The notes: generated by a model from the letters alone, not told the origin. Shown: positions 7,689 to 62,258, counted from the first letter of the stretch. The stretch is DNA of 64,000 nucleotides from a virus (IMGVR_UViG_3300032254_000001:160001-224000), one strand, 5' to 3'. Program-made: numbers and translations.

Positions 7689-7999
7689 TCGGTTTCTTGT
7701 TCGATTCGGATCTGTAACGGATAGCCCTGCTTACGTGCATCTACTGTTACTTCAATGCCTTTCTGCTCTGCTACCTCAAACGGTAATACCGCTGCAACTG
7801 CTGAACCAGCAGTATGTACGTCATTTGCTATTCGTTCAGCTGTGTTATTCACATAGCTAAAGTGCTCTACCAAGCTTTCTATAACAAACTGCATACTAGT
7901 CTTATTATCGTTTACATAAACAACCTTAAACATTGGTGGCTCTTTAAGATCTAATCGTGTTTTAATTGCAACTTCAGTTGACATTTTATTATCCTTCAT
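7685..7999 (-). CDS. clpS: ATP-dependent Clp protease adaptor ClpS (start 7999 or 7984)
   Basis: KEPPMFKVVYVNDNKT...DVHTAG...EVAEQK...GYPL signature. Confidence 0.92.
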   Translation of the reverse strand: MKDNKMSTEVAIKTRLDLKEPPMFKVVYVNDNKTSMQFVIESLVEHFSYVNNTAERIANDVHTAGSAVAAVLPFEVAEQKGIEVTVDARKQGYPLQIRIEQETD

Positions 8000-8023
8000 A
8001 TAAGTATTTAGTTATTGTATACA

Positions 8024-8051
8024 TTGTACACGGTTATTAGGCCGTGTACAA
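8024..8051 (-). terminator. 10-bp perfect stem-loop between hsp20 and clpS (terminator or processing site)
   Basis: ttgtacacgg / ccgtgtacaa inverted repeat; weak U-tract. Confidence 0.5.
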
Positions 8052-8065
8052 CAATATCGGTTAGG

Positions 8066-8512
8066 TTACTTTATTTCGATTTCTTTCGGTTTCATAGACT
8101 CCGGAACTAATCGTTCAAGTGTAACTGATAAAATGCCGTCAGTTATTTCAGCTTCTTTTACTTCAACATAATCTGCTAGTGCAAATGAGCGTCGAAATGT
8201 TCTAGCACTAATGCCTTGGTGTAGGTACGTAATTTCTTCTTCTTCGGTACCTTCAGAAAGACCACGTAGTCCTGTGATTTCCAGTTGATTGTTAGCAGTA
8301 GTAATCGCTATATCTGATTTTCTAAAACCAGCTACTGCTAGTTCAATTATGTAGTTATCGTCATCAACTTCAATAATGTTGTATGGTGGATAATTACCTG
8401 TGTTTGTATTGTCAATACGGTTTATCATTGCATTCATGTATCGTTCAACGCCGATTGCGTTGCGTAGGAATGGATCAAGATTGATAGAGGTGAGGTGTTT
8501 GCTTTTAGTCAT
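8066..8512 (-). CDS. small heat-shock protein Hsp20/IbpA-like (start at MTKSK, 8512)
   Basis: NYPPYNI, IELAVAGF, YLHQGISARTFRRSFALAD, GILSVTL; AAGGAG SD before 8512. Confidence 0.93.
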   Translation of the reverse strand: MTKSKHLTSINLDPFLRNAIGVERYMNAMINRIDNTNTGNYPPYNIIEVDDDNYIIELAVAGFRKSDIAITTANNQLEITGLRGLSEGTEEEEITYLHQGISARTFRRSFALADYVEVKEAEITDGILSVTLERLVPESMKPKEIEIK

Positions 8513-8584
8513 AATAGTCTCCTTAATATTAAGCAAGATTTAAATGTAAGACCCGCCTTATGCAGCATCTTACTTGTTTATTTA
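8513..8584 (-). promoter_or_regulatory. late promoter (8579-8584) plus two-hairpin 5'UTR with ROSE-type RNA thermometer over the hsp20 SD
   Basis: Minus strand TAAATA, hairpin GUAAGA..UCUUAC (8546-8573), then UCUUGCUUA-AUAU-UAAGGAGA (8518-8538) with UUGCU pairing AGGA and a bulged G. Confidence 0.75.
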
Positions 8585-10016: not shown

Positions 10017-11936
10017 TTAATCACGACCCAGCAGATCCTCGATGTGTTGTTTCTCTGCTTCGTTCAATAGCCCCGGATTATACGTGCCATTGCCGACCCT
10101 TTTAATTAACGCTTTGATGTATTCATGACTATAAGCGGTAAAGTTTAAAACATTTTTATCTATTCCATCCCAGTCACGACCATTAAAGATATACAGGTGT
10201 GTTGGGTCTAGGTCAGTACGTAAAAACATCCTGCCTAGCGTGTTATTTGTCACTGGAAACTCAGTGCCAGATTTTACTTCTTGTTCAAAGTCAAATTTAA
10301 TTGACGGGAACGACTGGATGAGTGCTTCAGTCCTAAACACCTTCCCGTTGAAATTAATATAGTTCTCGCCAACTTTAGTTAAGGAAATCTTACCATCTAA
10401 TGTATGTGGTAAATCACGCAAGTCTTTTGCAATATCACTTAACTCATTAAGGTCCTTCCATGGGCCTTCGTTTATACTATGTGCTTCTTCCGGCTCTGGT
10501 TCTTCAACCTTAACTTCTTCTATATCTTCGTCAAAGCCATGTGTTGCTTCGTATACACCATTCTCTGCATCTTCCCAATCAATTTGTTCTTTTGATGCGA
10601 AGTTAACTTTACTTACCTCGGTCTCAACAGGTGGTTCAGGTGGTTCAGGTTCAAGTGGTTCAACAAGCTCCTCCACAGGATAGTCTTTTAAAAGTTCATC
10701 CATTGTGTATTTTGGTTCTTCTTTGTCTGCAAGTTCTTTGAGTTCTGCACGGCCTCTATCAAATGAGTGTTGTGCTGCAATCAATAGCAATACTGCAAAT
10801 GGATCGAATACAAATATAATAAGGATGATTAACCACGTAACTGCTTTTTCAAGTAAGTTAGCATCTGCTTCTTGTCCGTACACAAACTCTGCTATGTACT
10901 TGATCGGACCAACTTCAGCTTCTAGTTTACGTGTGCTTGCCTCAAGCTCGTACTTCTGTTCTGTTAAAGTATCAAGTTCGGCATTTGCTTGTTTGTTCTT
11001 TTTGTGTTCAGCTGCAATTAAAGTTTCGATATCGTTCGCATTGGACTTGCCCATACGCGCTCGCAAACTCTTAATGGTTGCATTGCTTTCGTCTATTTCT
11101 GTTTGTACAGATGCACGGATACGATTGATTTCTTGTTGTGCTGCTGCTGTTGCTGCGGAAGGTGTGCCCCTAATGTCATCAATTTTTCCTAATAGGAAAT
11201 CACGCCTTGCTTCGTTGCGCTCTCTAAATGCTTTAATAGCTTTTTCTGTTTCGCCTTTGTACGAACCATCTGGCTTAGTACCTACTATGCCTTGCGCTGT
11301 TCTAATCTGACGTTTGTTAAGTGCTGTCTGTAAATCACCTAGCTGTTTGTTAATTGCATCAAGCTCAGACTTATAAGGTACGGTACGTCCTTCTGTCTTT
11401 GTTTCATCTGTTGCAATGATATCAAGCTGTACTTGTATGACTGGCTTAACACGATCATACGCTGAATCAATACGCTGCTGTTCTTTATCAATTTGAGCAT
11501 TAAGTCCGGCATCAACACCGCTACCGTTATCCTCGTAGCCTCTAATCTTTTGTTCAGAGCGAGCAATGATAGCATTATTCCTGGCTATCTCTGCTTCAAT
11601 GCGATCAACCTGTGCTACGCTTTCCTGTGATTGTGCTGTTTGTTCAACGTGGGATTTAGATAGATATCCAAAGATACCCATAGATGTGATAAACATGACA
11701 CCTGCTACAATAAGCGCCATTCCGAATACTAACAATCGGTTCTTATCCTTGTAATTGTAATGTAACCAAATGACTGCAACTAGCTTGCCAACTTCAATGG
11801 ATGTGCCCATTACTATAATCGATGTAGCATACGCGCTGAAAATAGCTGCTAAACCAGCTACACTAAAATAGATTGCAATGCTACTAATGAACAGAGCCGA
11901 AATTAAGGCAATATAGCCCAGTCTTATATTCAACAT
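10017..11936 (-). CDS. multi-pass membrane protein with long coiled coil and acidic tail
   Basis: About 3 N-terminal TM helices, heptad region, TM at VTWLIILIIFVFDPFAVLLLIAA. Confidence 0.8.
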   Translation of the reverse strand: MLNIRLGYIALISALFISSIAIYFSVAGLAAIFSAYATSIIVMGTSIEVGKLVAVIWLHYNYKDKNRLLVFGMALIVAGVMFITSMGIFGYLSKSHVEQTAQSQESVAQVDRIEAEIARNNAIIARSEQKIRGYEDNGSGVDAGLNAQIDKEQQRIDSAYDRVKPVIQVQLDIIATDETKTEGRTVPYKSELDAINKQLGDLQTALNKRQIRTAQGIVGTKPDGSYKGETEKAIKAFRERNEARRDFLLGKIDDIRGTPSAATAAAQQEINRIRASVQTEIDESNATIKSLRARMGKSNANDIETLIAAEHKKNKQANAELDTLTEQKYELEASTRKLEAEVGPIKYIAEFVYGQEADANLLEKAVTWLIILIIFVFDPFAVLLLIAAQHSFDRGRAELKELADKEEPKYTMDELLKDYPVEELVEPLEPEPPEPPVETEVSKVNFASKEQIDWEDAENGVYEATHGFDEDIEEVKVEEPEPEEAHSINEGPWKDLNELSDIAKDLRDLPHTLDGKISLTKVGENYINFNGKVFRTEALIQSFPSIKFDFEQEVKSGTEFPVTNNTLGRMFLRTDLDPTHLYIFNGRDWDGIDKNVLNFTAYSHEYIKALIKRVGNGTYNPGLLNEAEKQHIEDLLGRD

Positions 11937-11951
11937 ATTATATATTTATGG

Positions 11952-16023: not shown

Positions 16024-16311
16024 TTATGCGCCTACAAATACAGTAGCGGCAAATGTTCTGCGATTGTGTCCGCATGAATCAATTGTACCGTTATGTAGTA
16101 CAGGCCTTCCCTCACACAAAACAGTTGAGCTACCGCCTACTGTTTTTGCTGAACAATGCGAACTACACCCCGGAGCACCGCAACATGGATGTGGCGTCAC
16201 AGGTTCGCCGGGCAGCATCACTGGTGCGCCTTCGGCAAAAACAGTACCGGCGCCACCAAGTGCGACACCGCCTGCTACATTAATATCTCCTTTCCTTACT
16301 ACGTTTGGCAT
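16024..16311 (-). CDS. PAAR-domain tail spike tip protein
   Basis: VVRKGD...GAGTVFAEG...H..CC...H...GSSTVLCEGRPVLHNG..SCGH. Confidence 0.9.
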   Translation of the reverse strand: MPNVVRKGDINVAGGVALGGAGTVFAEGAPVMLPGEPVTPHPCCGAPGCSSHCSAKTVGGSSTVLCEGRPVLHNGTIDSCGHNRRTFAATVFVGA

Positions 16312-16318
16312 GTAGTAT

Positions 16319-16639
16319 TTATCCAGTAATTATTTGCTTCGGACCAGGTGTGATAATACCTGACTTTTCTTCCTGTGGCTTAACTGATTCGATATATGCT
16401 TCTTTAACATCTTCGCGGCAAGGTAATGCTAGTGCTACACCAATATAGTGTAATAAGCCCTTTGTGCCAAATTCTGCTGTGAACATAACTGGCAGGAATT
16501 CCATACCATTTTGACCTTGGCCAATTGTTAGCGGTGCGTCTAAGTGATAACCTTCTTCGGCAATCTCTAATACTTTAGCTACTACTTCCTGACCACATGT
16601 TAGTTTAAATGAATAAATCTCGTCTGCTTTAATTTCCAT
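16319..16639 (-). CDS. conserved small beta-barrel (Sm-like) phage protein
   Basis: FKLTCGQEVVAKV N-terminus; GIITPGPK C-terminus. Confidence 0.6.
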   Translation of the reverse strand: MEIKADEIYSFKLTCGQEVVAKVLEIAEEGYHLDAPLTIGQGQNGMEFLPVMFTAEFGTKGLLHYIGVALALPCREDVKEAYIESVKPQEEKSGIITPGPKQIITG

Positions 16640-20549: not shown

Positions 20550-21000
20550 TTTTATCCTTCTTCTTTTTCTTATTCCACCTAGCCTTTTGCGATGCTGCAA
20601 TTGCGGCCTTGTGTTCTTGAGACATTGCTCCTATTTTCCGACCTTTTGTTGCCGCGGAAAGTTTTGCTTTATGCTCTGGAGTAAAAGGCTTTCGCTTAAC
20701 TCCAACTCTACTGTTTGCTATTTTCTTTTTAGTTTCTTCTGAATGTGTATATCCAAAAACTCTACCACCAACTCTAATAAAATTGCCGGTGGTTGCGTCA
20801 CCACGCAACCGATGTATAGAAACATGGTCATCTGGGTGAAGTGCAATTAAATTTCGCGGATGATGTGCGCGTGGGTCGTCTTTAAAAAGACTTTTTGGTT
20901 TTATGTGGTGTACATGAAACCCCTTAGGAATATTCCAATCCGGATAAAATTGGCGCCAGTATTGAATAAGATTTTTACGATAATTAGTCGGATGATACAT
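20542..21000 (-). mobile_element. free-standing HNH homing endonuclease with NUMOD3-like repeats
   Basis: HVHHIKP...NLIALHPDDH; HSEETKKKI; overlaps nrdA start. Confidence 0.85.
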
Positions 21001-21013
21001 ACCGATATTTATA

Positions 21014-23308: not shown

Positions 23309-24085
23309 TTACTCCTTTTCAAACCAAACCCGCGTACCGTCTACGAGTTTCCATGTTTTGCCTTTGCAAGCTACATTCTTATGCCCAATTTTTCTTTTAT
23401 CTGTGTACGGGGGCAACTGTGGATCTCCATCTTTGCGGAATCTCCATCCTTTCGGCGATTTGCCATAATTTTTAGATTCAGGGTTTGCTACACTTGATGC
23501 ATACCCATCATCAACATTGTTATTTATGCACCATTCTTTTAAGTTAAGTACATAAAATTCGTTAATTGAATTATCTTTTTTGCTAACCCACCAACCCTTA
23601 CATCTCTTAAGTGATTGGCGTTTGTGCATTGCTGTTTGTTCTTCTCTACTTAGCGACTTAAACCACTTAGTGGCTCCGGCAAAACTATCTGATTGGTTCC
23701 CACGCTTTTTGTATATCTTATTTATTTCTTCTTGAGTCTTAAAATTACTCCAGTGGAAATTCTTATATCTTTGCTTAATACGCTCATATGTATGTGATGA
23801 AAATTTATTTTTACCATTAAACATTCTAACAAGTGCATAAAACATCTTAGACCTATTTTCGCTAACCGTTGCTTTTTCTAACAATAAATGACATACAAAA
23901 TGCTCGCGATATGTTAGATGCACACCGTTCCAATTGTATTCTTTAAGATTTGCGTACTCGGGAAATATAGATTCAGGTAGAATGTGATGATGCTCTGTCT
24001 TACCTTTAATTTGTTTGTCGCTGGCCTTCAGAATAATACCTAAATACCAACGATAATACTTATTGTCTATAAATTCATTGATCAT
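23309..24085 (-). mobile_element. free-standing HNH homing endonuclease
   Basis: YYRWYLGII...EHHHILPES...LTYREHFVCHLLL. Confidence 0.8.
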
Positions 24086-24102
24086 ATTACTATTTATGGC
24101 TT

Positions 24103-24789
24103 TTACATCTCAAAGTATTGTTCTACTCGGTTCCACCAGCGTCTACGGTGCTTATCAAAGTCTTCTAAGTCAATAATAAACTCCTGGTATTCAAAGTCCT
24201 TGCTACACATCATAATAACACCCTTGCGAATGTTAGTGCCGTAAAGTGCATTATGAGCTTCGCCATAGGCTGCAAGCTGTAAGTAGTAGTCCTGAATCCA
24301 TTCTTCTTTCTTAGGTTTATTGGTTTGCTTAAAGTCAATAATAGCTTCGCCACCTTTGTGTACACCGACGCAATCTGTTGTACCTGCATAGATGTTCGGA
24401 TGACAAACTGGAACTTCTGTTCCCCATATTTCATCTACATTAATCATGCCTTTGTCGATGATAATGCTTGCCATGTGGTTAGCTTGCTTTGCATATGGAT
24501 TTGAACCTGGGATAGCGAGCTCGTCTGTTATGCAATAGTCTTCAAGGTATTTGTGCATACGAGTGCCACGACTAGCTGCTTCGGTTGTTATTGCCTGCGC
24601 TCGTTGAGCACCGACATTCTTGCGCCAATTCGCTAATGCTTCGCGGTCGTCTGCTGGTTTGGTTTTGTCTAGTACTGTTGTGACGGACGGCATAGGTGCG
24701 TATTCTGCACTACCTTCAAGTAGGTAATGTCGCTTGCCGTTTACGTTTTGTCGTTTAAGGGATTTGTAATCGTATTTCTGAGTTATCAT
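24103..24789 (-). CDS. PD-(D/E)XK exonuclease (Cas4/MGME1-like phage family)
   Basis: PSVTTVL, GTRMH, AGTTDC, IIDFKQ, YYLQLAAY. Confidence 0.88.
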   Translation of the reverse strand: MITQKYDYKSLKRQNVNGKRHYLLEGSAEYAPMPSVTTVLDKTKPADDREALANWRKNVGAQRAQAITTEAASRGTRMHKYLEDYCITDELAIPGSNPYAKQANHMASIIIDKGMINVDEIWGTEVPVCHPNIYAGTTDCVGVHKGGEAIIDFKQTNKPKKEEWIQDYYLQLAAYGEAHNALYGTNIRKGVIMMCSKDFEYQEFIIDLEDFDKHRRRWWNRVEQYFEM

Positions 24790-24795
24790 CTAGCT

Positions 24796-24824
24796 AGTAT
24801 AGCAAAGATGATATTTTATGTCAA
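24796..24824 (-). promoter_or_regulatory. sigma70 promoter; -10 box 6 nt from the ATG (leaderless)
   Basis: TTGACA-N17-TATACT-agctag-ATG. Confidence 0.8.
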
Positions 24825-27774: not shown

Positions 27775-28174
27775 AGGTTTCGAACCTCATGTTCGGTGCA
27801 TAGTTTTCATTAGTTAATTCTAAATCTTTCTTTTCATCTAAGCCTGTCAGCAGTGGCACATTTTCAATATCTTCTTGTAACAACCCTAACGGGTTGCCAT
27901 TCTTTCTGAATACATCAATATGCTCGATGTCAAACTCAAGAGTCCAATCTAACTCATTAACAATCGTACGGATGTTATATGGTTGAGTACGCAACGAAAT
28001 AATTTGAATTAGAGTTTCCCAGTTTGTTTGCTGGCGCCTGCAATGAATCCATTCTTCTTCTGTATGGATTAGCTGTCCGTTAATTTTTGCTGGTAATAAA
28101 TTCTTTTTAAAGTTACGCACCACACCTGTATTTGTTATATCAAAGTCTGTATGAATCTTGATGTGTTGTGGCAT
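27764..28174 (-). CDS. hypothetical protein (leaderless late)
   Basis: TAAATA 4 nt before ATG. Confidence 0.7.
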   Translation of the reverse strand: MPQHIKIHTDFDITNTGVVRNFKKNLLPAKINGQLIHTEEEWIHCRRQQTNWETLIQIISLRTQPYNIRTIVNELDWTLEFDIEHIDVFRKNGNPLGLLQEDIENVPLLTGLDEKKDLELTNENYAPNMRFETYEV

Positions 28175-28206
28175 GTTGTATTTAACTAGCTAGAAACTCA
28201 GGCCAT

Positions 28207-28235
28207 AAAAAAGCCCCTAATGAAAGAGGCTTTTT
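28207..28235 (-). terminator. rho-independent terminator
   Basis: AAAAAGCCTCT-TTCATT-AGGGGCTTTTTT. Confidence 0.85.
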
Positions 28236-28253
28236 AATAATACTAAGTTATAC

Positions 28254-37649: not shown

Positions 37650-37702
37650 AGTACTATTTATCCTTTTTAGCGACAAGCTGTGCAACGTTATAAATACATT
37701 AA

Positions 37703-42133: not shown

Positions 42134-42139
42134 AGTTGT

Positions 42140-42168
42140 ATTATATAGCCTTTAGCTGTGTTTGTCTA
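42140..42168 (-). promoter_or_regulatory. sigma70 promoter, leaderless
   Basis: TAGACA-N17-TATAAT-acaact-ATG. Confidence 0.75.
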
Positions 42169-44896: not shown

Positions 44897-46104
44897 GTTT
44901 TCCCTGCTATTGAAAGGTATATTACTTTGTCTGCTGCAAGAGCAAACTTACCAATCGATTCCTGTGAGTGGAATAGGTTGGTTATAGGCGTGGTAGATAT
45001 TAACGTATTATACCCTTCTGCAAGCAATTTGTCAACCATGGCTTCATCTCTAAAGTCAGTATGGTCAAGTCGCTTAACATCTAAGTCCCAGTCTTCAACT
45101 TCTGATAGCTTCTCAAATGCGACAAGCGGCTTAGCTGGTGATGTTGGAATCCAGGAATGGGTATATAAAACAACCTTACGGCCGCTTTCTTTAATGTAAT
45201 TCTTTATGTCGTTAACGTCTGGTGCATCCATTACGTTGTGCTTGGTAGCAGGCGATACGCTATTAACGTACTGAGCAATATCTGCTAACTCCGGAGGTGC
45301 TATTAAGCCGAGCTTAGTTAGACGTTCAATGTTAACTATTGATAGATCACAAGGATCTATATCGTTTAGTATCGGAAGCATGGTTTCTGTTATGTGGCTA
45401 ACGTACAACCTGCCATTCACTATGCGTACTCCAGGTGTCCATTCTTCTTCTGTGCCAACAGCTTCTATGCCGCTAACTAATTCAGTAACCGAGTCGTCTA
45501 GTTTTACATCAATGCGATTCGCAAAGTCGTACACACCTTTGAATAGGTACAAGTTGAACGGGCCGGACCAAGTCTTGTCAGTATTGTTCCAATTGAAATT
45601 GTACTTCTGGCCGTTACCAAAGCTCTCACGGACACCACCATTTAAATGAACGCCAGCATCGTCGTGAACTATTGCACGGACTTCTTCAATCTGATTCTTA
45701 TTAAAATTGAAATATAACTGTATCTCAGGAGTGCCTTCATTATCGGCAAGCCTTAGATATGTTTTTTGATTAAGTGTTTCGAGTGCAATGATACCGTTCT
45801 TCCAATTTAATGCAAGAACATCTCTGTAGTTTACACTTAACTTCCTAAGCTGCTTCCTGTACTTGTGTACAATCTTTTCATACAAATCATTTTGACCTGG
45901 ACTAAGCGGCTTGTCTTTTGTTAAGTACTGCACCGAAATGTTTGACATGAACTTTAGATCATATCGGTTAAGCCTGACTTTAGTCATCAAGTCATGGTGT
46001 AACATGTCTCGATTTTCAGGCAGGCTAATAGATTCTTTCACCGGTTTAGTCACTGACTTAGTTGTCATAGTAGTTCCAATTTGTAAGATGTCTGATAAGT
46101 CCAT
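44893..46104 (-). CDS. hypothetical protein (start corrected to 46104, leaderless)
   Basis: TG-C-TATAAT extended -10 at 46111-46119, 6 nt before ATG. Confidence 0.75.
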   Translation of the reverse strand: MDLSDILQIGTTMTTKSVTKPVKESISLPENRDMLHHDLMTKVRLNRYDLKFMSNISVQYLTKDKPLSPGQNDLYEKIVHKYRKQLRKLSVNYRDVLALNWKNGIIALETLNQKTYLRLADNEGTPEIQLYFNFNKNQIEEVRAIVHDDAGVHLNGGVRESFGNGQKYNFNWNNTDKTWSGPFNLYLFKGVYDFANRIDVKLDDSVTELVSGIEAVGTEEEWTPGVRIVNGRLYVSHITETMLPILNDIDPCDLSIVNIERLTKLGLIAPPELADIAQYVNSVSPATKHNVMDAPDVNDIKNYIKESGRKVVLYTHSWIPTSPAKPLVAFEKLSEVEDWDLDVKRLDHTDFRDEAMVDKLLAEGYNTLISTTPITNLFHSQESIGKFALAADKVIYLSIAGKT

Positions 46105-46132
46105 ATGTATATTATAGCACACTTTTGTGATT

Positions 46133-46155
46133 AAAAAAGCCCCTTACGGGGCTTT
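46133..46155 (-). terminator. rho-independent terminator after the ATPase gene
   Basis: AAAGCCCC-GTAA-GGGGCTTTTTT. Confidence 0.9.
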
Positions 46156-46217
46156 CGAGTAAATGGACGTTTTACAGGAGTTCAACATATTTTTTAAACG
46201 TCCAATCTTCTCTAAAC

Positions 46218-47457: not shown

Positions 47458-47486
47458 AAAAAAATACCCGCTTTCACGGGTATTTT
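47458..47486 (-). terminator. rho-independent terminator
   Basis: AAAATACCCG-TGAAAG-CGGGTATTTTTTT. Confidence 0.9.
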
Positions 47487-47513
47487 GTTCACATTGTGTA
47501 CTAAAATGTCTAG

Positions 47514-53581: not shown

Positions 53582-53650
53582 AATAGTTTTCTCCTTGTAA
53601 TGTCCTAAATCTACCTAACTCTTCTCGAGCGTATAGAATATCTAACCTGA

Positions 53651-53777
53651 TACTACGCAACCTTCGCGGCGTGTTGTAGTATACGATTATTTATCATCGT
53701 TTTACGATAGTCGGAATTTTTAATTATAATAGTTGCGACTACCTGTGTATTATAAGGCATCGCAGGGAAAATTGCAA
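53651..53777 (-). promoter_or_regulatory. tandem early (53749-53777) and late (53688-53693) promoters plus 5' hairpin of the gp32 leader
   Basis: TTGCAA-N17-TATAAT; TAAATA; TACTAC..GTAGTA hairpin at 53651-53681. Confidence 0.7.
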
Positions 53778-53796
53778 GTGAAATGGCTTCCAAAAA

Positions 53797-53842: not shown

Positions 53843-55567
53843 TTATTTCTTTAAAAGGAAATTGGTACGTTGCATTAAATCTTTAAGATCAGTTTGATTG
53901 TCCATTGCAACATGTAATGGCATACCGGATTCGGTTACTTCTTCTTTTTCTTCAGCTTCATCGACTTCTTCAACAGCCTCATCGACTTCTTCAACTGCTT
54001 CGTCAATCGCTTCTTCGACTTCTGCTTCTGTCTCAGCGACATATTCTGTAAATGGTTTCATATTGATATCCTCATCATTTGATTCTTTTCGTATGTATGC
54101 GTCCACGTCTCTGTTAACACTAGCATGTAAATGGGTTTCATCGTCAGCATCAAGCTCGCTCTCTAACCCTTCCTGTACACCCTTTATTGCCATTTTAAGA
54201 TTTTGCATTACATTTGGGTTACTAAATTCTAATTTATTTCGAATAGCTTCTCTGATCCAATTGATAACAATCGGACGCGCATCAGCGTCTGGATCACTTT
54301 CAGCTACTTCAGATAATGCATCAAATAAATCATCGTCCCCAATAATATTGTATAATGCATCCGACGCATTCATTGCGTCAAGGCCGAGCGGTTGTTCAGT
54401 TGATAAAAATGCTCTAAGTGCTTTAACTTGTTTTGGTGTTTCTGGAACTGCCCAGGTACCTTCGACAATATTGTCTGCCCACTCTTCAAATTCCTTTATC
54501 TCATTCATGTCGTCGTCCCTGCCAGGATATGGCATTTCATCGTCATCATCGTCTTCCCAATCGCCTTGCTCCGGATGTGTATCTCCAGGAAATTGTTTAC
54601 CCTTAACTTCTTCTGGCCATTCAATCTGAGCTTCTGCCATCTTTTGCAATCTAGCTAATAAAGGTAACGCTTCTTCGGTACGTGTGTTGACTGTTTTCTC
54701 TGTGAATAATTTACGGATAGCTGATGTATCTGTGTCCATCTCTGTAATTTCAGATGGTTCCCAACCTTCCTTATATGTGCTGTAACCACGCTTGCCAGCT
54801 ATTTGCTTTAGGCCCTTACGTAGTGATGTATAATGTGTGCGGCCTGTTTCAACCAAAGCCATTGCTTCGTCGTTGCCTTCGTACATTTTTGAACGTCTAA
54901 CAAATCCGCCCAATGTGTTAATATCTTTAACCATTTCGCAGATGTGTATACCAAATAAATCGTAAGGATTACCGCCTTCGGTAACGTGGCGAGCCATTGC
55001 TCTAGCTCCTGTTAATTTGGTAAATGGTAATTTGAAACGTTCACCTGATGCATTTTCAATAAACAACGAACTGATGTTACGGAAACGCTTTTCGTCTTCG
55101 CCTAATGCTCTAGTATGTTTAATGATGATTTTAGCTTTGCCTTGTGGGCTGTAGCTTGTTTTGGATGTACCGTAATACCCTTCGAAGATATTGCGATAGC
55201 TTTCTGTAATGTCTGTTATATTAGATAAGTCGTACTTTAAATCTGATGTGTGTTTTAAACTAAAACCTAATCTGTTGCTACGAGCGTAGGTGCTTAAATG
55301 TTCTATTAAGTTCTCCCACTTTTTCTTAGCGTCTGGATCAAGTGACTTGCTGGTGTTGTCACCATAGTACACTTCAAGGTTATCCTTAGCACTTAATAAT
55401 ATTACAACTGGGCCGTAATTACGTGAGTTAACAAGAAAGTCAAAACTAAACATTTCAATTTCTTCCATGTCTGTTGTTTCTTTACCTGTTGAGTCTAGTG
55501 TTTTGATATCTGTATTATCGAACTTTGTGCCGAGAATGTTATACAATTTTTCTGCTACATTTTCCAT
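53843..55567 (-). CDS. large conserved protein with acidic C-terminus, candidate prohead core/internal protein
   Basis: VEEA.DE repeats, many [ILV]xE sites; leaderless late promoter 55573-55578. Confidence 0.6.
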   Translation of the reverse strand: MENVAEKLYNILGTKFDNTDIKTLDSTGKETTDMEEIEMFSFDFLVNSRNYGPVVILLSAKDNLEVYYGDNTSKSLDPDAKKKWENLIEHLSTYARSNRLGFSLKHTSDLKYDLSNITDITESYRNIFEGYYGTSKTSYSPQGKAKIIIKHTRALGEDEKRFRNISSLFIENASGERFKLPFTKLTGARAMARHVTEGGNPYDLFGIHICEMVKDINTLGGFVRRSKMYEGNDEAMALVETGRTHYTSLRKGLKQIAGKRGYSTYKEGWEPSEITEMDTDTSAIRKLFTEKTVNTRTEEALPLLARLQKMAEAQIEWPEEVKGKQFPGDTHPEQGDWEDDDDDEMPYPGRDDDMNEIKEFEEWADNIVEGTWAVPETPKQVKALRAFLSTEQPLGLDAMNASDALYNIIGDDDLFDALSEVAESDPDADARPIVINWIREAIRNKLEFSNPNVMQNLKMAIKGVQEGLESELDADDETHLHASVNRDVDAYIRKESNDEDINMKPFTEYVAETEAEVEEAIDEAVEEVDEAVEEVDEAEEKEEVTESGMPLHVAMDNQTDLKDLMQRTNFLLKK

Positions 55568-55587
55568 GCAAGTATTTACCTTAGAAG

Positions 55588-57171
55588 TTAGAACATCGCA
55601 ATGAATGGCATCGGTTCAACGACGTCATCACCGTAATCACGTAGTTGGCCAGTTAGCTCTTTGTGATAATCTTTTAGTACTGCGAACATGCGAATAGTTA
55701 GTAATAGTGACATAACTAAGTCATCGTGTTCGCCTGGTTTTGCAGCAAAGCTCGCGCCTAGTGCTACAAAGTGTTTGAATTCAGTTATTAATGGCTTACT
55801 ACTAACTGTCATCTTTTTAGTTTCAACTAAGTTCTTTAACTTAGCACATGCTGAAATCTTACTTTTGTTTGTTGTGTTAAAACCTTTGCGGTAACGTCTA
55901 TTAGTTGTACCGCTACCGCGCAACTTAGGCTCACTTAAAAATACGCCTGCGATGTTTTGTTCGCCGTATTCATCTATGCTTATAAGTGCGGCTTCGCCTA
56001 GTGTATTATTCTCTACACTGTAATACACATTATTTGTGTTCTGACATTTGTCTGACACTTCCTTAACAATATCCGCAAAGACTCGTATCTGCATGGGTAT
56101 AGGAGTTTTGTTGTGCTTCCACTCCGCGACTTGCTTAGTAGTGTTAGCTTCGAATACTTGAATGGCTGCTGGGTCTCCACCCGTGCCGAGGCTCGGGTCT
56201 AATGCCACTGTGTAAATCTTTCCGGGCTTCGGTTCTGAGTACCAGCGTACCTGGCCGGACTTGCGAATAGGTTCAACTCCGGCCATTTCAATTAGTGTTG
56301 TTGCCGCGATAAGTGTTTCGTCGAAGATTAAGAATTCGTTTAAATGCTCACGACGGAAACGTTCTTCGCCTATACGCCCCTTCTCTTCTTCAGCCCATTG
56401 GTCGTCGCGATCAGGATGTGCTTTCCAGTCAGCTTCATATGCTTTGAAACCGTTCTGTCCAAGGCCGCCTTCGCGCTCGTTACCGTATTCGTCTTCTGTT
56501 TTGTTTGCGCCTTTCCATAATAATGCAAACTGATCTTCATCACTGTTCGGTGTTGAAGTAATAATTGCACCGCCACCTGTTGATAGTGTAGGAGATATTG
56601 ATGTCCAAAATTCTTTCGCAATGTTAGGTCTTACAAATGCAAATTCGTCTAAGTACAATAATGTAATAGACATACCACGTCCAGTGTTTTCTGTCGTTGC
56701 CTGTGCAACTATACGTGAGCCATTGTCAAACTCCATCGATCCTTTATTATACGATGTCACACCCGCTCGGATGTGGTCTGGACATAATTCATATGCATAG
56801 CGAATACGCTGCATAATTTCTTGCACACCACTATACTTGTGGGCTGCAATAAGGATTGTGCTATCAGGTTTGAACATTGCGTACCATAGAAGATAGCCTG
56901 CCGCGGTGGTTGTTTTACCAGTTTGCCTACTAAGTAGGTTAATGCTAAAACGATAGTTTACATAACTGTCTATTAATCCCTTTTGGAATTCATATGGATT
57001 GTATTGTAACCTACCTTCAAGAGGGTGTTGGATATAGAAAAAGTGCGTTAAGAAATACATTGGACCGGTGTCGGGGTCTGCACATTTTGCAAAATCAAAC
57101 AGATGTTGCTCATCATAATGAGCTTTGCTATGTGCTTTCTTTACTAATACACCTTCTAGTGATTTGGACAT
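55588..57171 (-). CDS. terminase large subunit (gp17-like)
   Basis: SRQTGKTT, LYLDEFAF, ITSTPN, ALDPSLG, HDDLVM. Confidence 0.96.
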   Translation of the reverse strand: MSKSLEGVLVKKAHSKAHYDEQHLFDFAKCADPDTGPMYFLTHFFYIQHPLEGRLQYNPYEFQKGLIDSYVNYRFSINLLSRQTGKTTTAAGYLLWYAMFKPDSTILIAAHKYSGVQEIMQRIRYAYELCPDHIRAGVTSYNKGSMEFDNGSRIVAQATTENTGRGMSITLLYLDEFAFVRPNIAKEFWTSISPTLSTGGGAIITSTPNSDEDQFALLWKGANKTEDEYGNEREGGLGQNGFKAYEADWKAHPDRDDQWAEEEKGRIGEERFRREHLNEFLIFDETLIAATTLIEMAGVEPIRKSGQVRWYSEPKPGKIYTVALDPSLGTGGDPAAIQVFEANTTKQVAEWKHNKTPIPMQIRVFADIVKEVSDKCQNTNNVYYSVENNTLGEAALISIDEYGEQNIAGVFLSEPKLRGSGTTNRRYRKGFNTTNKSKISACAKLKNLVETKKMTVSSKPLITEFKHFVALGASFAAKPGEHDDLVMSLLLTIRMFAVLKDYHKELTGQLRDYGDDVVEPMPFIAMF

Positions 57172-57212
57172 AGTTGTATTTACTCCAAAATCACAATTAC
57201 GGACAAAATGTT

Positions 57213-58223
57213 TTAGGGTTTACCGCATGAATCCTGGCATATAACTAACATTCCGTCGTCAAAAGAGCTATGCTGCCATGTATTAGCAACATCATCGAAC
57301 CATTTAATGCAATCTACTAGACTATTTTCTATTGCATTGTTATTGGCAACCATGTGCTTGAATTGGTTGTTTGCTGCACTGTGATAGCCTGATTCGTATG
57401 TCTTAGGCTCAAAACCTAAGTAACAACACGGATATACATCGCCTTGCGCTGATATATAAATCTCTTTGCGTCGTTGTGCTTCGCAGTCAATCTGCTTACA
57501 TTCTTTTCCATTTGTTATATCTTCAAGCAATATAACGTTCTCTTGTTTAAACTGTTGCAATTCTTCTACAGTAGTAAAGTTAAGTGGTGAATCATCAGTA
57601 CCGTCTATGTCACACACCTTACCATCTTCATTGAACACTGGCAAGTGACCTCTAGTGTTCTTAATTGCTTTAAACTCAGTAAACCCAATTCGCAATAAGA
57701 ATAGTTTTAATTTGTGTTCTTGTGTTGCATTGTGCTTGAACTGTATAAACTGACAATGAGCTTCGCCGCCAGCTTTTATATATGCTTTGGCATTTTTAAG
57801 TACGGTATTAAATGAAGTGCCGCGCCTGTATATTTCATGTGTACCAAAGATACCATCAATGTCAAACGATACAATAACACCTAGTGTTCCTAGTTCTTCC
57901 CAAAACTCTACCTTCTGTGCTGATGCATTGGTACTAATATTAATTACTATGTCTGGGTTTTCTGATTTCATCCATTTAATAATATCAATACTATGCGGGT
58001 TCATTACAAAGTCACCAAAGTTACCATTGATTCTAAGATTCGTTATTTGTTGTAGGAAGTTATCTTTAAAGATTGATTTAATGTCTGCTAGTGTTAAGTT
58101 ACGTTCGATATATCCGCCGTTGAACTTCTGCCCGTAAAAGTTGCGTGGGCAGCCAGGGCACTTTGCATTGCAATACGAACTTAGTTCTAGGTGTATTTTG
58201 CTAACTGTGTCTATGTTGAACAT
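57213..58223 (-). CDS. radical SAM protein with C-terminal Twitch/SPASM-like domain (start probably MFNID, 58223)
   Basis: CNAKCPGC, NGNFGD, YISAQGDVYPCCY...C...C; TAAGTA 5 nt before ATG. Confidence 0.88.
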   Translation of the reverse strand: MFNIDTVSKIHLELSSYCNAKCPGCPRNFYGQKFNGGYIERNLTLADIKSIFKDNFLQQITNLRINGNFGDFVMNPHSIDIIKWMKSENPDIVINISTNASAQKVEFWEELGTLGVIVSFDIDGIFGTHEIYRRGTSFNTVLKNAKAYIKAGGEAHCQFIQFKHNATQEHKLKLFLLRIGFTEFKAIKNTRGHLPVFNEDGKVCDIDGTDDSPLNFTTVEELQQFKQENVILLEDITNGKECKQIDCEAQRRKEIYISAQGDVYPCCYLGFEPKTYESGYHSAANNQFKHMVANNNAIENSLVDCIKWFDDVANTWQHSSFDDGMLVICQDSCGKP

Positions 58224-58257
58224 GCTGGTACTTATAAGTGAAGATGCAGGACTCAAT

Positions 58258-58280
58258 AAAAAACAGCCCGAGAGCTGTTT
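58258..58280 (-). terminator. rho-independent terminator
   Basis: AAACAGC-TCTCGG-GCTGTTTTTT. Confidence 0.85.
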
Positions 58281-58292
58281 CTTAATTACTAT

Positions 58293-59272: not shown

Positions 59273-61080
59273 TATTTCTTCTCGCCTCGGATACTAAACT
59301 CTTTATAAAGATCTAAGAAGCCATCAACACTTTCGTGTTCATTTTTAAAATAAGATTCTTCAACTTCTTCTTTCTTATCTTCATCTTCTTCTTTGTCATC
59401 TTCCTTGTCGTCTTTTTCCCAAGGCTTCTGCCATTCTTTCTTTTCTTCAGCTTCATCAACTTCTTCGTCGATAACTTCTTCTTCTTTCATTGCATCTTCG
59501 AACATGCCGTCTAACATTGATATTAATTCCGACATTGGATTGTCTCCGCCAGCTGCTGGTTTGTGCATACGCTTAGGCTTATTAAGGCCACCGCTTGTAC
59601 CATGTGTTACCATGTCTACACCAGCTTCTTTTTCATTTGGTGTGTTAGCATGTTCGATGTCACGCTCTTCGCCAATTGATTTTGCATTGTCAACGTAGTC
59701 TCTAACATCATCACCAAAGCGATCAAATAACCATTCACTTGGATCACCTGTACGTGCTTTCTGTGTACCATAAGGCATGTCTTCAATGCTGTAGTCCATA
59801 AGTGCTTCGTCAACTGCGTCATTACCGTTTGATAACCATTGCATTAAGTCTTCAGTACTGAACTGTGATAATATTTTATCTACGCCGTGGTCTTCGTTGC
59901 TAGCCATTGCTTGGGCACGTGTCATTGGAGTGTGTACTGGTATTTCGTTATCGTACAGCTCGTAATCATCATCGTCGTTGCCAAATTCAATTGCATCTAA
60001 GTCGGCGTTTGAAGGTTCAACATCGCCCCTTGGAGCAAAATCATCTTCATCGTCGTCTTCCATTTCGCTCATGCCGCAAGATGCATTTGCATTAAGCTCT
60101 TGTGGTTCTGCATCTGGTACTGGTAATTCTGTTGTTTGCATTGGCTCTGCTGGCATTTGCGCAGGTTCGCCTGTATCAATCATGCTAGCTTCATCGTCCA
60201 TGCTAGAATAGTCACCTGGGTTTAAACCTGCATTCTGCATCATTGCTGCTAACTCTTCGCCTGCACCTGGACCAACTGCTGTTACAGTAGTTGTATCATT
60301 TGCTGGGTTTTCTAAGTTAGTAGTCTGAGTCATTGTAATGTCTTCAGCTAGTAATGCATCGAAGTTAATGTTGAATTCTTCGTATACAGAGTTATTAGTA
60401 ATGTCTGCTGAAACAATGTCACTTAAATGTACTTTAACTGTCTTGCCGTCACAATCACGAACGACTGTGCCGTAATGTCCACTTGGACTACGGTTAATGA
60501 ATATGCCTCTGCGATCACCGTCTGGGTCTGAACAAATTTCAGGACTTAATACAACTGGTGTACCACGCTGTAAACGTTTACGGTGTGCTTCGTTTTCACT
60601 ATCGAAAGTTGAAAACTCTAAATCATCACCTTTGCTCATTGCTATTTCAGCACCTGGAGAAGCACCTAGCGAAAACTCGTCTAGCTTAGTTGACTCTCCT
60701 AATTCATCGTCATCGTCATCTGGGCTACCAATCATTTCGTCTGGATCATCACCGTCATGGCCCATTGCGCTAGACCATTCATCTTCATCAGACTCTTTAG
60801 ACTCTGTAGCAAAGCTGTTTTCGTCGTCGTCAACGCCCATAAATGCTGCGGCTGTTTCTTCATCGTCAAATTCTGTAGTGTTACCATCAGTTGTAACTTT
60901 TACTTTATTGCCCATGCTCTGTACTTTAGTTTGTGTTTCGCCTACACCTTGTGCTTGGCGTGACTTAACTCGTCCACTAATACGTTCTGCTGCGCCTTCT
61001 TCAACTGGTGTAAGTTTATCAGCAGCCGATTCAAGGTTGTCAAACGTCTCTAAAATGTTATAAAGTTTCATATCACTCAT
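59272..61080 (-). CDS. very acidic, largely disordered candidate prohead core/internal protein
   Basis: D/E runs; xxE-S/A sites; SGGLNKPK motif. Confidence 0.6.
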   Translation of the reverse strand: MSDMKLYNILETFDNLESAADKLTPVEEGAAERISGRVKSRQAQGVGETQTKVQSMGNKVKVTTDGNTTEFDDEETAAAFMGVDDDENSFATESKESDEDEWSSAMGHDGDDPDEMIGSPDDDDDELGESTKLDEFSLGASPGAEIAMSKGDDLEFSTFDSENEAHRKRLQRGTPVVLSPEICSDPDGDRRGIFINRSPSGHYGTVVRDCDGKTVKVHLSDIVSADITNNSVYEEFNINFDALLAEDITMTQTTNLENPANDTTTVTAVGPGAGEELAAMMQNAGLNPGDYSSMDDEASMIDTGEPAQMPAEPMQTTELPVPDAEPQELNANASCGMSEMEDDDEDDFAPRGDVEPSNADLDAIEFGNDDDDYELYDNEIPVHTPMTRAQAMASNEDHGVDKILSQFSTEDLMQWLSNGNDAVDEALMDYSIEDMPYGTQKARTGDPSEWLFDRFGDDVRDYVDNAKSIGEERDIEHANTPNEKEAGVDMVTHGTSGGLNKPKRMHKPAAGGDNPMSELISMLDGMFEDAMKEEEVIDEEVDEAEEKKEWQKPWEKDDKEDDKEEDEDKKEEVEESYFKNEHESVDGFLDLYKEFSIRGEKK

Positions 61081-61670
61081 TATATTATGTCCTTAATTTT
61101 TAAACGCTTGACCTTTGATAGTGGGCTATCTTTGTCTTCGTCTGTATCTGTTGAATATTGCGCTGCTGGTGTTGTTTCACCTGCTATTTCAAAGTCTGTG
61201 TCTGCTTCGCCTGCAAACTCTCTAGCTGCTGTTTCGTAGCTGTCTGCATATGCATCGCTAGCGTCTTTCTGCTCTGAGGTTTGATCTGGGTATTCAGGAG
61301 TTTCTAAACGTGTACCGTCTTCAACACCTTCTAACTCTTTAGTCATGCTATCGTTAAAATCTTTACAAAGCACAACTATCTTAGCTGGATCAATGCCACA
61401 CTGTTTAGCAAGTTCTGTGATTTGCTCTGCACTTCCCGGATAATTTAAAGTAACGTCAAATATATTAATCTCTTCGTTCTTTAAACCTGGAAAGCCGTGT
61501 GGGTCAGCTTGTATTGGGGTTTTCTTAGGCTTGGTGCAGTTATCTACATCAAACATATCCAATGCTGCTGCCAGCTTGTCGTAGTTCTCTTTAGGTAATT
61601 CGCCAGCAACTTTAATACGATAAACATATTGTTTAGCTGACGATGTAAAGTATTCATTTAGTGTTTTCAT
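61080..61670 (-). CDS. conserved protein with MKTLNEY N-terminus (start probably 61670)
   Basis: Late promoter 61699-61704; CTS-like start. Confidence 0.65.
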   Translation of the reverse strand: MKTLNEYFTSSAKQYVYRIKVAGELPKENYDKLAAALDMFDVDNCTKPKKTPIQADPHGFPGLKNEEINIFDVTLNYPGSAEQITELAKQCGIDPAKIVVLCKDFNDSMTKELEGVEDGTRLETPEYPDQTSEQKDASDAYADSYETAAREFAGEADTDFEIAGETTPAAQYSTDTDEDKDSPLSKVKRLKIKDII

Positions 61671-61709
61671 AAAGTGTTTATCTCGCAATATTTTTATGTA
61701 TTTATCGAT

Positions 61710-62213
61710 TCAATCAGTTTTGTCTTGATCTTGTTTTGCTGCGTTCGCTTGCTTTAGTACTTCTGCAAGTAACTCATTTCGATCTAACATCTTGCCTTCC
61801 CCAGGTGTAGCATCTGGGTCACCGCTATCTTGATCTAGCTTTGCTTTCTTAAGCTGTAGGTCAAGCATCTTTAACTTTTTATTAATCTTAGCGTTTTTGG
61901 CTGTAATAGCGTGTCCTAGGAACTGACTTGCTGAGCCTAATATCTCGCTTGCCACTCTAGCTTCAACATTCATGCCCAAGTCCATAAGGTCCTTGTAGCT
62001 GTCAATAGCTAGCTGAGCTATATCGTCCATTTCCTTATCAGCTGCATCAAGCCCTTTAATAGCAGGCAACGCACTATCAATCTTTTCTAGATTGTGCATT
62101 GTTTCTTGTGTAACTATTTCAGTGGATGGTTGCTCAGGTTGAGCATCTTCACCGACATCATCTGTGTCAGTATCTTGTGGTAAATCGAATAACTCTGATA
62201 GTTTTTTTGTCAT
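61710..62213 (-). CDS. possible terminase small subunit
   Basis: Helical/coiled-coil 167 aa; next to head completion gene; leaderless late. Confidence 0.45.
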   Translation of the reverse strand: MTKKLSELFDLPQDTDTDDVGEDAQPEQPSTEIVTQETMHNLEKIDSALPAIKGLDAADKEMDDIAQLAIDSYKDLMDLGMNVEARVASEILGSASQFLGHAITAKNAKINKKLKMLDLQLKKAKLDQDSGDPDATPGEGKMLDRNELLAEVLKQANAAKQDQDKTD

Positions 62214-62258
62214 ACACGTATTTAGTCACAGACCAAAGTGTATAAGAATTAGGATAGG

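Follow-up and report, generated by a model that had tools for sequence, protein, structure and literature searches.

Late promoters and leaderless mRNAs in described systems

Late genes of phage T4 are transcribed with the gp55 sigma factor, the gp33 co-activator and the gp45 clamp from promoters that carry the octamer TATAAATA at -13 to -6 and no conserved -35 element, which leaves a gap of five nucleotides between box and transcription start (PMC1524935). The T4 literature that we examined describes no leaderless layout for T4 late genes. There is a T4 case in which a late promoter near the start region decides whether a transcript can be translated, with homing endonuclease genes as prominent users; in that case an RNA hairpin hides the Shine-Dalgarno (SD) sequence in longer transcripts. 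Leaderless mRNAs, such as lambda cI from PRM and those that are widespread in Mycobacterium, Deinococcus and haloarchaea and are modelled by GeneMarkS-2, have a 5'-terminal AUG, no SD, low 5' structure and a fixed short distance between -10 box and start, and bacterial leaderless genes are predicted by these criteria (PMC3160421, PMC6028130, PMC8459731). Neither of the two jumbo phages with mapped transcription starts that we checked has such mRNAs: phiKZ makes no leaderless transcripts (PMC8244752), and the 5' UTRs of AR9 are 26-491 nt long (PMC5312081). T4 late transcription and leaderless translation both belong to the textbooks, but they are not known to have been described in combination.

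We analysed a stretch of 64,000 nucleotides (the window) from the 344-kb genome of an uncultured T4-related giant phage, a microbial-mat jumbo phage. About one in ten of its genes begin exactly at a predicted promoter start, and their mRNAs probably lack a ribosome-binding leader and have the AUG as their 5' end. This promoter-on-ATG layout is statistically solid and common to relatives. As in T4, the core of the box is TAAATA, there is no conserved -35 element, and the genes behind the box include those for packaging, virion parts and lysis. The phage also encodes a gp55-family late sigma factor of 337 aa (G000 284984-285997; phrog_12791, 4.8e-76; phrog_234, 1.5e-22), which matches T4 gp55 itself only weakly. 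Unlike in T4, the ATG lies at +1 in ∼40% of the box-headed genes, whereas in T4 itself TAAATA-N5-ATG is not clearly in excess (10, compared with 5 for the reversed control). Another difference lies in the two bases that precede the core, which are G and A/C here and TA in T4. Of the other components of the T4 system, gp33 gave nothing below E = 3 in a phmmer search of all ORFs with a Syn9 gp33-like query, a miss that weighs little for a small, fast-evolving protein, and gp45 was matched neither by PF02916 nor by phmmer with the T4 query. A homologue of the clamp loader gp44 is present (phmmer, E = 1.7e-20), suggesting that the phage has a divergent clamp. The phage differs from known leaderless systems in that the layout is mostly found at late promoters of a gp55-type factor, and from the T4 hairpin case in that there is no SD to hide, so that translatability would come from the 5'-terminal AUG.

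Promoter boxes at a fixed distance from start codons

The sequence-only reading had listed 15 sites in the window at which a -10-like box ends 4-6 nt before an ATG, and we located box and gap at all of them. All lie on the minus strand except one of a divergent pair. A gap of five nucleotides separates TAAATA from the ATG in front of the ClpS-like gene 7685-7999 (box 8005-8010, ATG 7999, element 7997..8010), the HNH endonuclease gene 20542-21000 (box 21006-21011, ATG 21000, element 20998..21011), the homing endonuclease gene 23309-24085 (box 24091-24096, ATG 24085, element 24083..24096), the virion structural protein gene 53843-55567 (box 55573-55578, ATG 55567, element 55565..55578), the large terminase (TerL) gene 55588-57171 (box 57177-57182, ATG 57171, element 57169..57182) and a gene for a 167-aa protein, 61710-62213 (box 62219-62224, ATG 62213, element 62211..62224). 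The radical-SAM-like gene 57213-58223 has the variant TAAGTA at the same distance (58229-58234, ATG 58223), preceded by an intrinsic terminator (58221..58290). A 53-bp divergent gap (37647..37705, both strands) holds two back-to-back boxes, one at gap 5 for the minus-strand homing endonuclease gene 36984-37649 (box 37655-37660, ATG 37649) and one at gap 6 for the plus-strand gene 37703-38089 (128 aa; box 37691-37696, ATG 37703). The gap is 4 nt at the PAAR-like gene 16024-16311 (box 16316-16321, ATG 16311, element 16309..16321), where the TAA of the box doubles as the stop codon of the upstream gene, and at the gene for a 136-aa protein, 27764-28174, which follows an intrinsic terminator (box 28179-28184, ATG 28174, 28172..28240). 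It is 6 nt at the gene for a 639-aa protein, 10017-11936 (box 11943-11948, ATG 11936, element 11934..11948); this gene is the first of a co-directional run that contains the phage bS21 gene. The remaining three sites are sigma70-type promoters with the ATG 6 nt past the -10 box: TTGACA-17-TATACT at the exonuclease gene 24103-24789 (24787..24824, ATG 24789), TAGACA-17-TATAAT at the gene 41633-42133 (42131..42168, ATG 42133), and, after an intrinsic terminator, TGcTATAAT at the gene 44893-46104 (46102..46160, ATG 46104), where an extended -10 stands in place of the -35 hexamer.

Hence, gaps of 4, 5 and 6 nt all occur, as had been claimed, but the true enrichment is sharper and falls on TAAATA-N5-ATG. 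The window contains eight such cases against 1.66 +/- 1.37 in dinucleotide shuffles, none of 100 shuffles reaching eight. Positional statistics for the 344-kb genome give the same spike: 36 of 282 TAAATA have an ATG at gap 5, compared with a mean of 5.98 +/- 2.65 at other gaps (Poisson P = 7e-17) and five for the reversed pattern, and 31 of the 36 start an ORF of 50 aa or more. When hexamers are compared by position upstream of all ORF starts, TAAATA at gap 5 ranks first in enrichment, ahead of every SD hexamer. The core is invariant by construction of the search; the only signal seen upstream of it is a G at -2 and A/C at -1, with no sign of a -35 element, and the two bases that open the T4 octamer have no conserved counterpart here. 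Promoters of the sigma70 type (TTGACA-like -35 and TATAAT-like -10, 16-18 bp apart) number 105 genome-wide. They have 10 ATGs at gap 6 against a background of 1-2, and six genes have the ATG exactly 6 nt past the -10, including 24789 and 42133 in the window.

The two classes thus differ in their offset, and in each the offset equals the distance of the promoter type to +1, as a sigma70 -10 box occupies -12..-7 and leaves a gap of 6; +1 would therefore fall on the A of the ATG in both. We infer this start position from the geometry of T4 and E. coli promoters, with the box-to-start distance taken to be that of T4 (PMC1524935, PMC2988020, PMC7892883). The proposal that both early and late mRNAs are involved agrees with the presence of the layout at gp55-type boxes (offset 5) and at sigma70-type promoters (offset 6). 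We consider it likely that TAAATA is the core of a T4-type late promoter read by the gp55-family sigma, that some 30-35 genes are leaderless from a predicted +1 at the A of the ATG, and that a smaller sigma70-type set behaves likewise.

The layout recurs in 80 related viral contigs (1 Mb, duplicate contexts removed), in which TAAATA-N5-ATG occurs 121 times among 664 TAAATA (∼11 expected) and TAAGTA-N5-ATG 47 times (∼7 expected), while control hexamers stay flat. The spacing is constant in these relatives and the sequence of the spacer is variable. At TerL, 26 of 53 distinct orthologous loci retain the arrangement. We did not see the signature in T4, PA5oct, the cyanophages or the other jumbo phages examined.

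The start region and competing explanations

Other features of the start region are consistent with transcription from the A of the ATG. Bacterial RNA polymerase prefers a pyrimidine at -1 and a purine at +1. In keeping with this preference, the base at -1 is a pyrimidine at 27 of 30 sites (90%) compared with 206 of 478 other genes (P = 4e-7), and at 92% of the 121 sites in the relatives. ATG is the triplet at gap 5 in 36 cases, the next commonest triplets reaching at most nine, with GTG and TTG at background. An SD core within -18..-4 is found at one of 30 sites and in 187 of 478 other genes; the interval between box and ATG is just 4-6 nt. The first 30 nt are A-rich and have a mean MFE of -0.45 compared with -1.64 kcal/mol (Mann-Whitney P = 4e-5). 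The start calls are sound: 27 of 35 have no alternative in-frame start upstream and TerL orthologs with and without an SD leader share the same initial Met. Three boxes, those at 28174, 46104 and 58223, lie 19-25 nt downstream of a terminator, and several sites lie in divergent gaps of 27-56 bp, which excludes an SD-bearing transcript in these contexts. The claim that mRNAs begin at or next to the AUG is thus well supported as a prediction by promoter geometry, the flanking bases, the choice of start codon, the lack of structure at the 5' end, the sites next to terminators or in divergent gaps, and the recurrence of the layout in relatives.

Alternatively, TAAATA could be a promoter while translation proceeds mainly on longer read-through mRNAs, by termination-reinitiation or 70S scanning, and the spacing could reflect compaction of the genome into a minimal intergenic gap. 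Most sites do lie in co-directional runs without terminators. A terminator precedes only one of 35 TAAATA sites, 14 of 25 co-directional sites are no more than 20 nt from the stop codon of the preceding gene, which in some cases is formed by the TAA of the box itself, suggesting that read-through with termination-reinitiation could contribute to expression. As the main explanation we find it unlikely, since compaction alone predicts neither the exact spacing of each promoter class, 5 nt in one and 6 nt in the other, nor the -1 pyrimidine, the exclusive use of ATG and the unstructured 5' end, and since the layout also exists downstream of terminators and in divergent gaps, places that no ribosome from an upstream gene reaches.

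The bS21 gene of the phage (8633-8845, minus strand) had been linked to the leaderless genes, in that phage bS21 would make or tune ribosomes for two tiers of mRNA, one leaderless and one SD-led. The gene lies in a run headed by a TAAATA-N6-ATG gene, the sole cultured phage tested that has the signature, HTVC008M, encodes bS21 too, and none of five tested phages without bS21 shows the signature. However, co-occurrence does not support the link: PA5oct (also by an unbiased scan), Atu_ph07 and Phosso encode bS21 without the signature, and Fisher's exact test on the 2x2 table of bS21 and signature gives P of about 0.4 (hand calculation). Moreover, a preprint reports that the leaderless mRNA of lambda cI is translated better in E. 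coli by ribosomes that lack bS21 and uS2, and that leaderless translation is favoured by losing bS21 and not by having it (PMC10491246), and the bS21 phages of Bacteroidetes have been accounted for without leaderless mRNAs (PMC9723584). We regard the bS21 link as quite improbable.

It is also highly improbable that UAAAUA-N5-AUG acts at the RNA level, as an SD substitute or as the operator of a translational regulator, and not as a promoter. The fixed distance to the start codon and the absence of an SD would suit such a signal, and TAAATAGGAG directly precedes an SD in two places, the capsid gene and G000 250242. At the capsid gene, TAAATA directly adjoins the SD, and hence a transcription start 6 nt past the box would not serve the gene at every TAAATA. 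On the other hand, TAAATA occurs 7-100 nt upstream of 45 SD-led genes with the same flank, a G and then A/C before the box, and with an A at the sixth nucleotide after it in 64% of these leadered copies compared with 31% of copies inside genes, which argues that the box is a DNA signal independent of the ATG. Two of these leadered promoters, those of hsp20 (8066-8512; promoter 8513..8584, minus strand) and gp32 (52550-53581; promoter 53582..53693, minus strand), have a hairpin followed by the SD AAGGAG. The hairpins begin exactly at the sixth nucleotide after TAAATA, as the sequence-only reading had noted, but this is not general at leadered TAAATA sites, and the argument from hairpins to the start site holds for these two genes only. 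Together with the frequent A at that position, the two hairpins lend indirect support to a predicted transcription start at the sixth nucleotide. Some TerL orthologs retain the box despite an inserted 17-nt SD leader, the box fits the T4 late consensus in a phage that encodes a gp55 homologue, and the independent sigma70-type class has an analogous layout. If the promoter reading is right, the bases within 11 nt upstream of the AUG would be absent from the mRNA. Chance, base composition or paralogous spread of one cassette has a negligible probability: the genome is AT-rich and eight of the genes encode homing endonucleases, which could have spread with their upstream sequence, but counts stay at background in shuffles, at other gaps, for the reversed pattern and for one-mismatch variants, the enrichment persists under a composition-matched control, the flanks and spacers of the sites differ from each other, and the spike recurs in the 80 contigs after removal of duplicate contexts.

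Gene content and expected consequences

Returning to transcription from the A of the ATG, we propose that the gp55-family sigma reads TAAATA and that the first transcribed base would be this A, with the host-type TTGACA-17-TATAAT promoters placed one base further upstream according to their own geometry. The resulting mRNAs would have a 5'-terminal AUG, no SD and an A-rich, unstructured 5' end, and would be translated by the SD-independent leaderless route, in which a 70S ribosome or a 30S subunit binds the 5'-terminal AUG. On read-through transcripts from upstream genes, the same ORFs would lack any ribosome-binding site. The likely effect is that protein output would be modest and tied to the firing of the gene's own promoter. 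We infer leaderless translation and its regulatory benefit from the layout. The genes that carry it include TerL, virion parts, PAAR, a spanin and eight homing endonucleases. Modest output would suit such low-copy or potentially harmful products (TerL, the PAAR tip, the spanin, homing endonucleases), and high-copy products (capsid protein, gp32, UvsX, Hsp20) would keep SD leaders. Indeed, the major capsid protein, gp32, UvsX and Hsp20 genes retain theirs; the suggestion that abundant genes do so fits the cases checked, which are anecdotal.

On balance, we lean towards the broader view that in a widespread aquatic group of T4-related phages, which includes the jumbo phage analysed here, from a microbial mat, along with 80 or more related contigs and HTVC008M, a phage of SAR11, the minimal gp55-type late promoter has become a joint start signal for transcription and translation (box, five bases, AUG). 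If so, a tier of late genes and resident homing endonucleases would be made from leaderless mRNAs, with translation gated by promoter firing and not by a ribosome-binding site, and promoter use would set late protein levels. A systematic leaderless programme would then be described for the first time among T4-type phages, and a large, environmentally common group of them would express at least a tenth of its genes with no ribosome-binding site. The signal carried by homing endonucleases would be self-sufficient, a portable expression cassette of 14 bp that could serve mobile genes. Starts of this kind may be misplaced by gene callers that require an SD, and the takeover of translation by phages (bS21, tRNAs) would need to be interpreted with two mRNA classes in mind.

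The leaderless reading is directly testable, since the same signature is present in a cultured pair, HTVC008M and its Pelagibacter host, for which our literature search found no paper linking the phage with leaderless mRNAs. HTVC008M is a T4-like phage of 147 kb assigned in its record to another family, Kyanoviridae, and hence not a close relative. Its genome has 14 copies of TAAATA-N5-ATG, compared with a background of 3.3 (P = 1e-5); 12 of the 14 start an ORF of 85 aa or more, and the base at -1 is frequently T.

Spacing of promoter boxes and start codons

A sequence-only reading had listed 15 genes in the window whose ATG stands 4-6 nt after a TAAATA, TAAGTA or sigma70-type -10 box, and all 15 sites are present in the sequence. 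The stated range holds, yet the spacing proved tighter: seven of the 11 TAAATA boxes end 5 nt before the ATG (two end 4 nt and two 6 nt before it), and the gap is 5 nt at the TAAGTA site and 6 nt at each of the three TATAAT/TATACT sites. TAAATA-N5-ATG occurs eight times in the window compared with 1.66 ± 1.37 times in 100 dinucleotide-preserving shuffles, none of which reached eight, confirming the proposed enrichment over chance. Genome-wide, with other gaps and the reversed pattern as controls, an ATG follows 36 of 282 TAAATA copies at gap 5 (Poisson P = 7e-17); the other gaps from 0 to 40 have a mean of 5.98 ± 2.65 ATGs with a maximum of 13, and the reversed pattern occurs five times. Most gap-5 ATGs (31/36) begin an ORF of 50 aa or longer. 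When all hexamers were tallied without bias at all distances ahead of the ORFs, first place went to TAAATA at gap 5, above all Shine-Dalgarno (SD) hexamers. One-mismatch variants of the box stayed at background level across the genome except for a weak TAAGTA signal. Flanks and spacers vary among the gap-5 sites, which are therefore not duplicates of each other.

We scanned IMG/VR with the large terminase subunit TerL and gathered 80 related loci (65-87% identity, ∼1 Mb), removing duplicate contexts before counting. TAAATA-N5-ATG accounts for 121 of 664 TAAATA copies in these relatives versus ∼11 at other gaps, and TAAGTA-N5-ATG for 47 of 490 TAAGTA copies versus ∼7, while ten control hexamers gave a flat profile; 109 of the 121 ATGs begin ORFs of 50 aa or longer. 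Upstream of TerL itself, TAAATA or TAAGTA is found at gap 5 in 26 of 53 distinct loci, with differing spacer sequences. A few loci have a gap of 7-8 nt, two keep TAAATA with a 17-nt SD leader, and in others TerL is SD-led or overlaps with the preceding gene. Hence, a single ortholog family shows gain, loss and maintenance of the layout, and the box is separable from the ATG, which counts against the alternative that it acts at the RNA level as a substitute for an SD sequence.

Among cultured phages, T4, PA5oct, Phosso, Atu_ph07, GAP32, Syn9, P-SSM2 and KVP40 had the signature no more often than controls, and an unbiased hexamer-by-gap scan of PA5oct returned SD motifs only. The T4-like SAR11 phage HTVC008M (NC_020484) has TAAATA-N5-ATG 14 times versus a background of 3.3 (P = 1e-5), often as TAAATAGTAnTATG, and 12 of the 14 sites begin ORFs of 85 aa or longer. 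We also noticed TATAAT immediately before the ATG, at gap 0, seven times in our genome and six times in HTVC008M, and TATATT at gap 0 nine times in HTVC008M; this may reflect only an A/T-rich spacer after an SD.

The start codons themselves appear to be correctly placed. In 27 of the 35 genes with a box at gap 4-6 there is no alternative in-frame ATG, GTG or TTG between the upstream stop and the ATG, almost none of the 35 offers an SD-led in-frame start further downstream, and SD-led TerL orthologs start at the same Met-Ser-Lys as the box-headed ones. Two ORFs overlap at one site in the window. The plus-strand ORF (37703-38089) is the real gene there, with a codon-usage score of 0.21 that is typical of the genome (0.25 ± 0.15), and the overlapping minus-strand ORF (37699-38061), with a score of -0.11, is probably spurious.

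Predicted transcription start at the ATG

With TAAATA at positions -11 to -6, a 5-nt gap would put the transcription start (+1) on the A of the ATG, and a -10 hexamer at -12 to -7 followed by 6 nt would do the same. We searched the genome for sigma70-type promoters (TTGACA with up to 1 mismatch, 16-18 bp, TATAAT with up to 1 mismatch) and obtained 105 sites, whose -10-to-gene-start distance spikes at exactly 6 nt (six genes, or 10 ATGs when gene calls are ignored, versus 1-2 at other distances). In the 80 related loci there was no TATAAT spike at gap 6 without the -35 requirement. The layout is found in both phage late-type and host-type promoters, as had been suggested. Without selection for a 5'-terminal AUG, it is difficult to see why each of the two promoter types should have the offset that suits it.

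Several further features agree with this. A pyrimidine precedes the ATG at 27 of 30 sites compared with 43% of other genes (P = 4e-7), and at 92% of the 121 sites in relatives. Bacterial RNA polymerase prefers a pyrimidine at -1 and a purine at +1, with which this bias agrees. ATG is the only start codon enriched at gap 5, and an SD core precedes one of 30 sites as opposed to 187 of 478 other genes. Over their first 30 nt the genes are rich in A and have hardly any structure (-0.45 versus -1.64 kcal/mol, P = 4e-5), as efficient leaderless translation is known to require (PMC8459731). Taken as a whole, these features of the sequence uphold the earlier suggestion of leaderless translation: the predicted late-box mRNAs and some host-type ones are probably leaderless and begin with the AUG. 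They fit the computational definition used for leaderless genes of bacteria (PMC3160421, PMC6028130).

At some sites a leader supplied by a co-directional upstream transcript is impossible, owing to either a terminator or a divergent gap. Canonical intrinsic terminators end 19-25 nt before the box at window positions 28174, 46104 and 58223, and divergent gaps of 27-56 bp lie at the gene starts at window 37649/37703 and at genome positions 19881, 30852, 32319 and 70241. In the first of these gaps (window 37650-37702, 53 bp) two TAAATA boxes stand back to back, each separated by 5-6 nt from the ATG that it precedes. An upstream terminator is not a general feature, being present at only one of 35 TAAATA sites in addition to the sigma70-type site at 46104 and the TAAGTA site at 58223. 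Most sites lie in co-directional arrays without terminators, often at most 20 nt from the upstream stop, and therefore reinitiation on read-through transcripts may contribute to expression.

Relationship to T4-type late promoters

The T4 late promoter TATAAATA, located at -13 to -6 from the transcription start, has TAAATA as its invariant core (PMC1524935; PMC2988020); it is read by gp55 and has no -35 element (PMC7892883). The source contig (344,483 bp, direct terminal repeats, 40% G+C; the window covers bases 160001-224000) encodes the T4-type core genes Gp23 capsid protein, Gp20 portal, gp32, UvsX and gp44 clamp loader, and a gp55-family late sigma factor of 337 aa (phrog_12791 at 4.8e-76, phrog_234 at 1.5e-22). 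A second, short gp55-like ORF of 131 aa (genome positions 256009-256404) resembles the late sigma factor in its conserved core alone. With the core box and gp55 present, the promoter appears to belong with the T4-type late promoters; sequence searches of the genome detected no homologs of the co-activators gp33 and gp45. A 222-aa candidate leaderless gene adjoining the clamp loader (genome positions 134136-134804) was considered as the clamp and rejected, as it gave no PDB, Pfam or PHROG signal and has just two relatives. Pfam tail sheath and tube models had zero matches. The TerL is 53% identical to that of its nearest cultured phage, the Pseudomonas jumbo phage PA5oct, and 50-52% identical to those of Sinorhizobium phage Phosso and Agrobacterium phage Atu_ph07; megablast of the whole window found no match to cultured phages at the DNA level. 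Microbial-mat metagenome runs contain DNA of the window.

The box also occurs away from start codons. Whereas ∼30 copies adjoin an ATG, 45 intergenic copies sit 7-100 nt upstream of SD-led genes, and both groups share a G two bases and an A or C one base before the box; copies inside genes have unremarkable flanks. The sixth base after the box is an A in 64% of leadered copies versus 31% of within-gene copies. Judging from the shared flank and this preference for a +1 of its own, the box behaves as a DNA signal with or without an ATG present. Hairpins had been cited as independent markers of the start site. Those of hsp20 and gp32 do begin at exactly the sixth base after the box and fit a 5'-terminal stabilising stem, but this does not generalise, as stems start at scattered positions and at nucleotide 6 in only ∼3 of 29 leadered TAAATA sites. 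Ahead of the gene for the major capsid protein and of a second gene, GGAG comes straight after TAAATA ('TAAATAGGAG'; genome positions 265538-265553 and 250228-250262), and the latter region has a further TAAATA 15 nt upstream of the box abutting the SD.

Two jumbo phages with mapped transcription starts were consulted, phiKZ (PMC8244752) and AR9 (PMC5312081), and neither has leaderless transcripts, and we found no description of systematic promoter/start-codon fusion in T4-related phages in the literature searched. What is new is the combination, in a T4-related clade, of predicted gp55-type and some host-type promoters systematically fused to start codons, a layout that is well supported because the sequence statistics and the comparative data both favor it.

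Genes with the layout and phage bS21

Gene use was tallied over the annotation of ∼30 leaderless candidates. Eight homing/HNH endonucleases have TAAATA-N5-ATG, three in the window (20542-21000, 23309-24085 and 36984-37649) and five at genome positions 1862-2284, 19881-20570, 47275-47952, 53070-53792 and 61310-61999, and this signal of 14 bp may serve mobile genes as a portable expression cassette. Other box-headed genes encode TerL, PAAR, an Rz-like spanin, three virion structural proteins and proteins of ClpS-like and radical-SAM-like type; an exonuclease gene is among those with a sigma70-type promoter, and the rest of the candidates have no annotation. The SD-led genes include gp32, UvsX, Hsp20, a virion protein with a 26-nt leader, and the major capsid protein, where TAAATA abuts the GGAGA SD. 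The proposal that abundant products keep SD leaders fits gp32, UvsX, Hsp20 and the capsid protein among the listed genes. The list would fit a possible split in which modest-copy or potentially harmful products are leaderless and bulk products SD-led. In T4, translation of genes e, soc, 49 and I-TevI requires transcripts that start at a late promoter adjoining the ribosome-binding site, because a hairpin conceals the SD in longer ones (PMC3014915). Our phage may reach the same end by other means, as its longer transcripts would be without any ribosome-binding site.

A two-tier translation scheme had been suggested as the reason why the phage encodes bS21. The gene is real (window 8633-8845); the co-directional run to which it belongs begins with the TAAATA-N6-ATG gene at 11936. 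A tblastn search of bS21 against the phage collection gave no match, and homologs above the Pfam cut-off are present in the three cultured phages with the nearest TerL, PA5oct (170985-171143), Atu_ph07 (489120-489257) and Phosso (389762-389905). These three carry bS21 without the signature, HTVC008M has both (bS21 at 91237-91392), and five phages without bS21 lack the signature as well, so co-occurrence lends the suggested link no support. For the leaderless lambda cI mRNA, a preprint reports better handling by ribosomes lacking uS2 and bS21 (PMC10491246), and the role published for phage bS21 was proposed for Bacteroidetes hosts, with leaderless mRNAs playing no part in it (PMC9723584). We consider a functional link between bS21 and the leaderless genes very unlikely. 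The protein was also of no use for a host call, as its nearest cellular homologs, 40-52% identical, are scattered across many phyla. The bS21 ATG shares one base with the end of the upstream gene and is preceded by GGAGG at the unusually long spacing of 13 nt (window 8846-8870).
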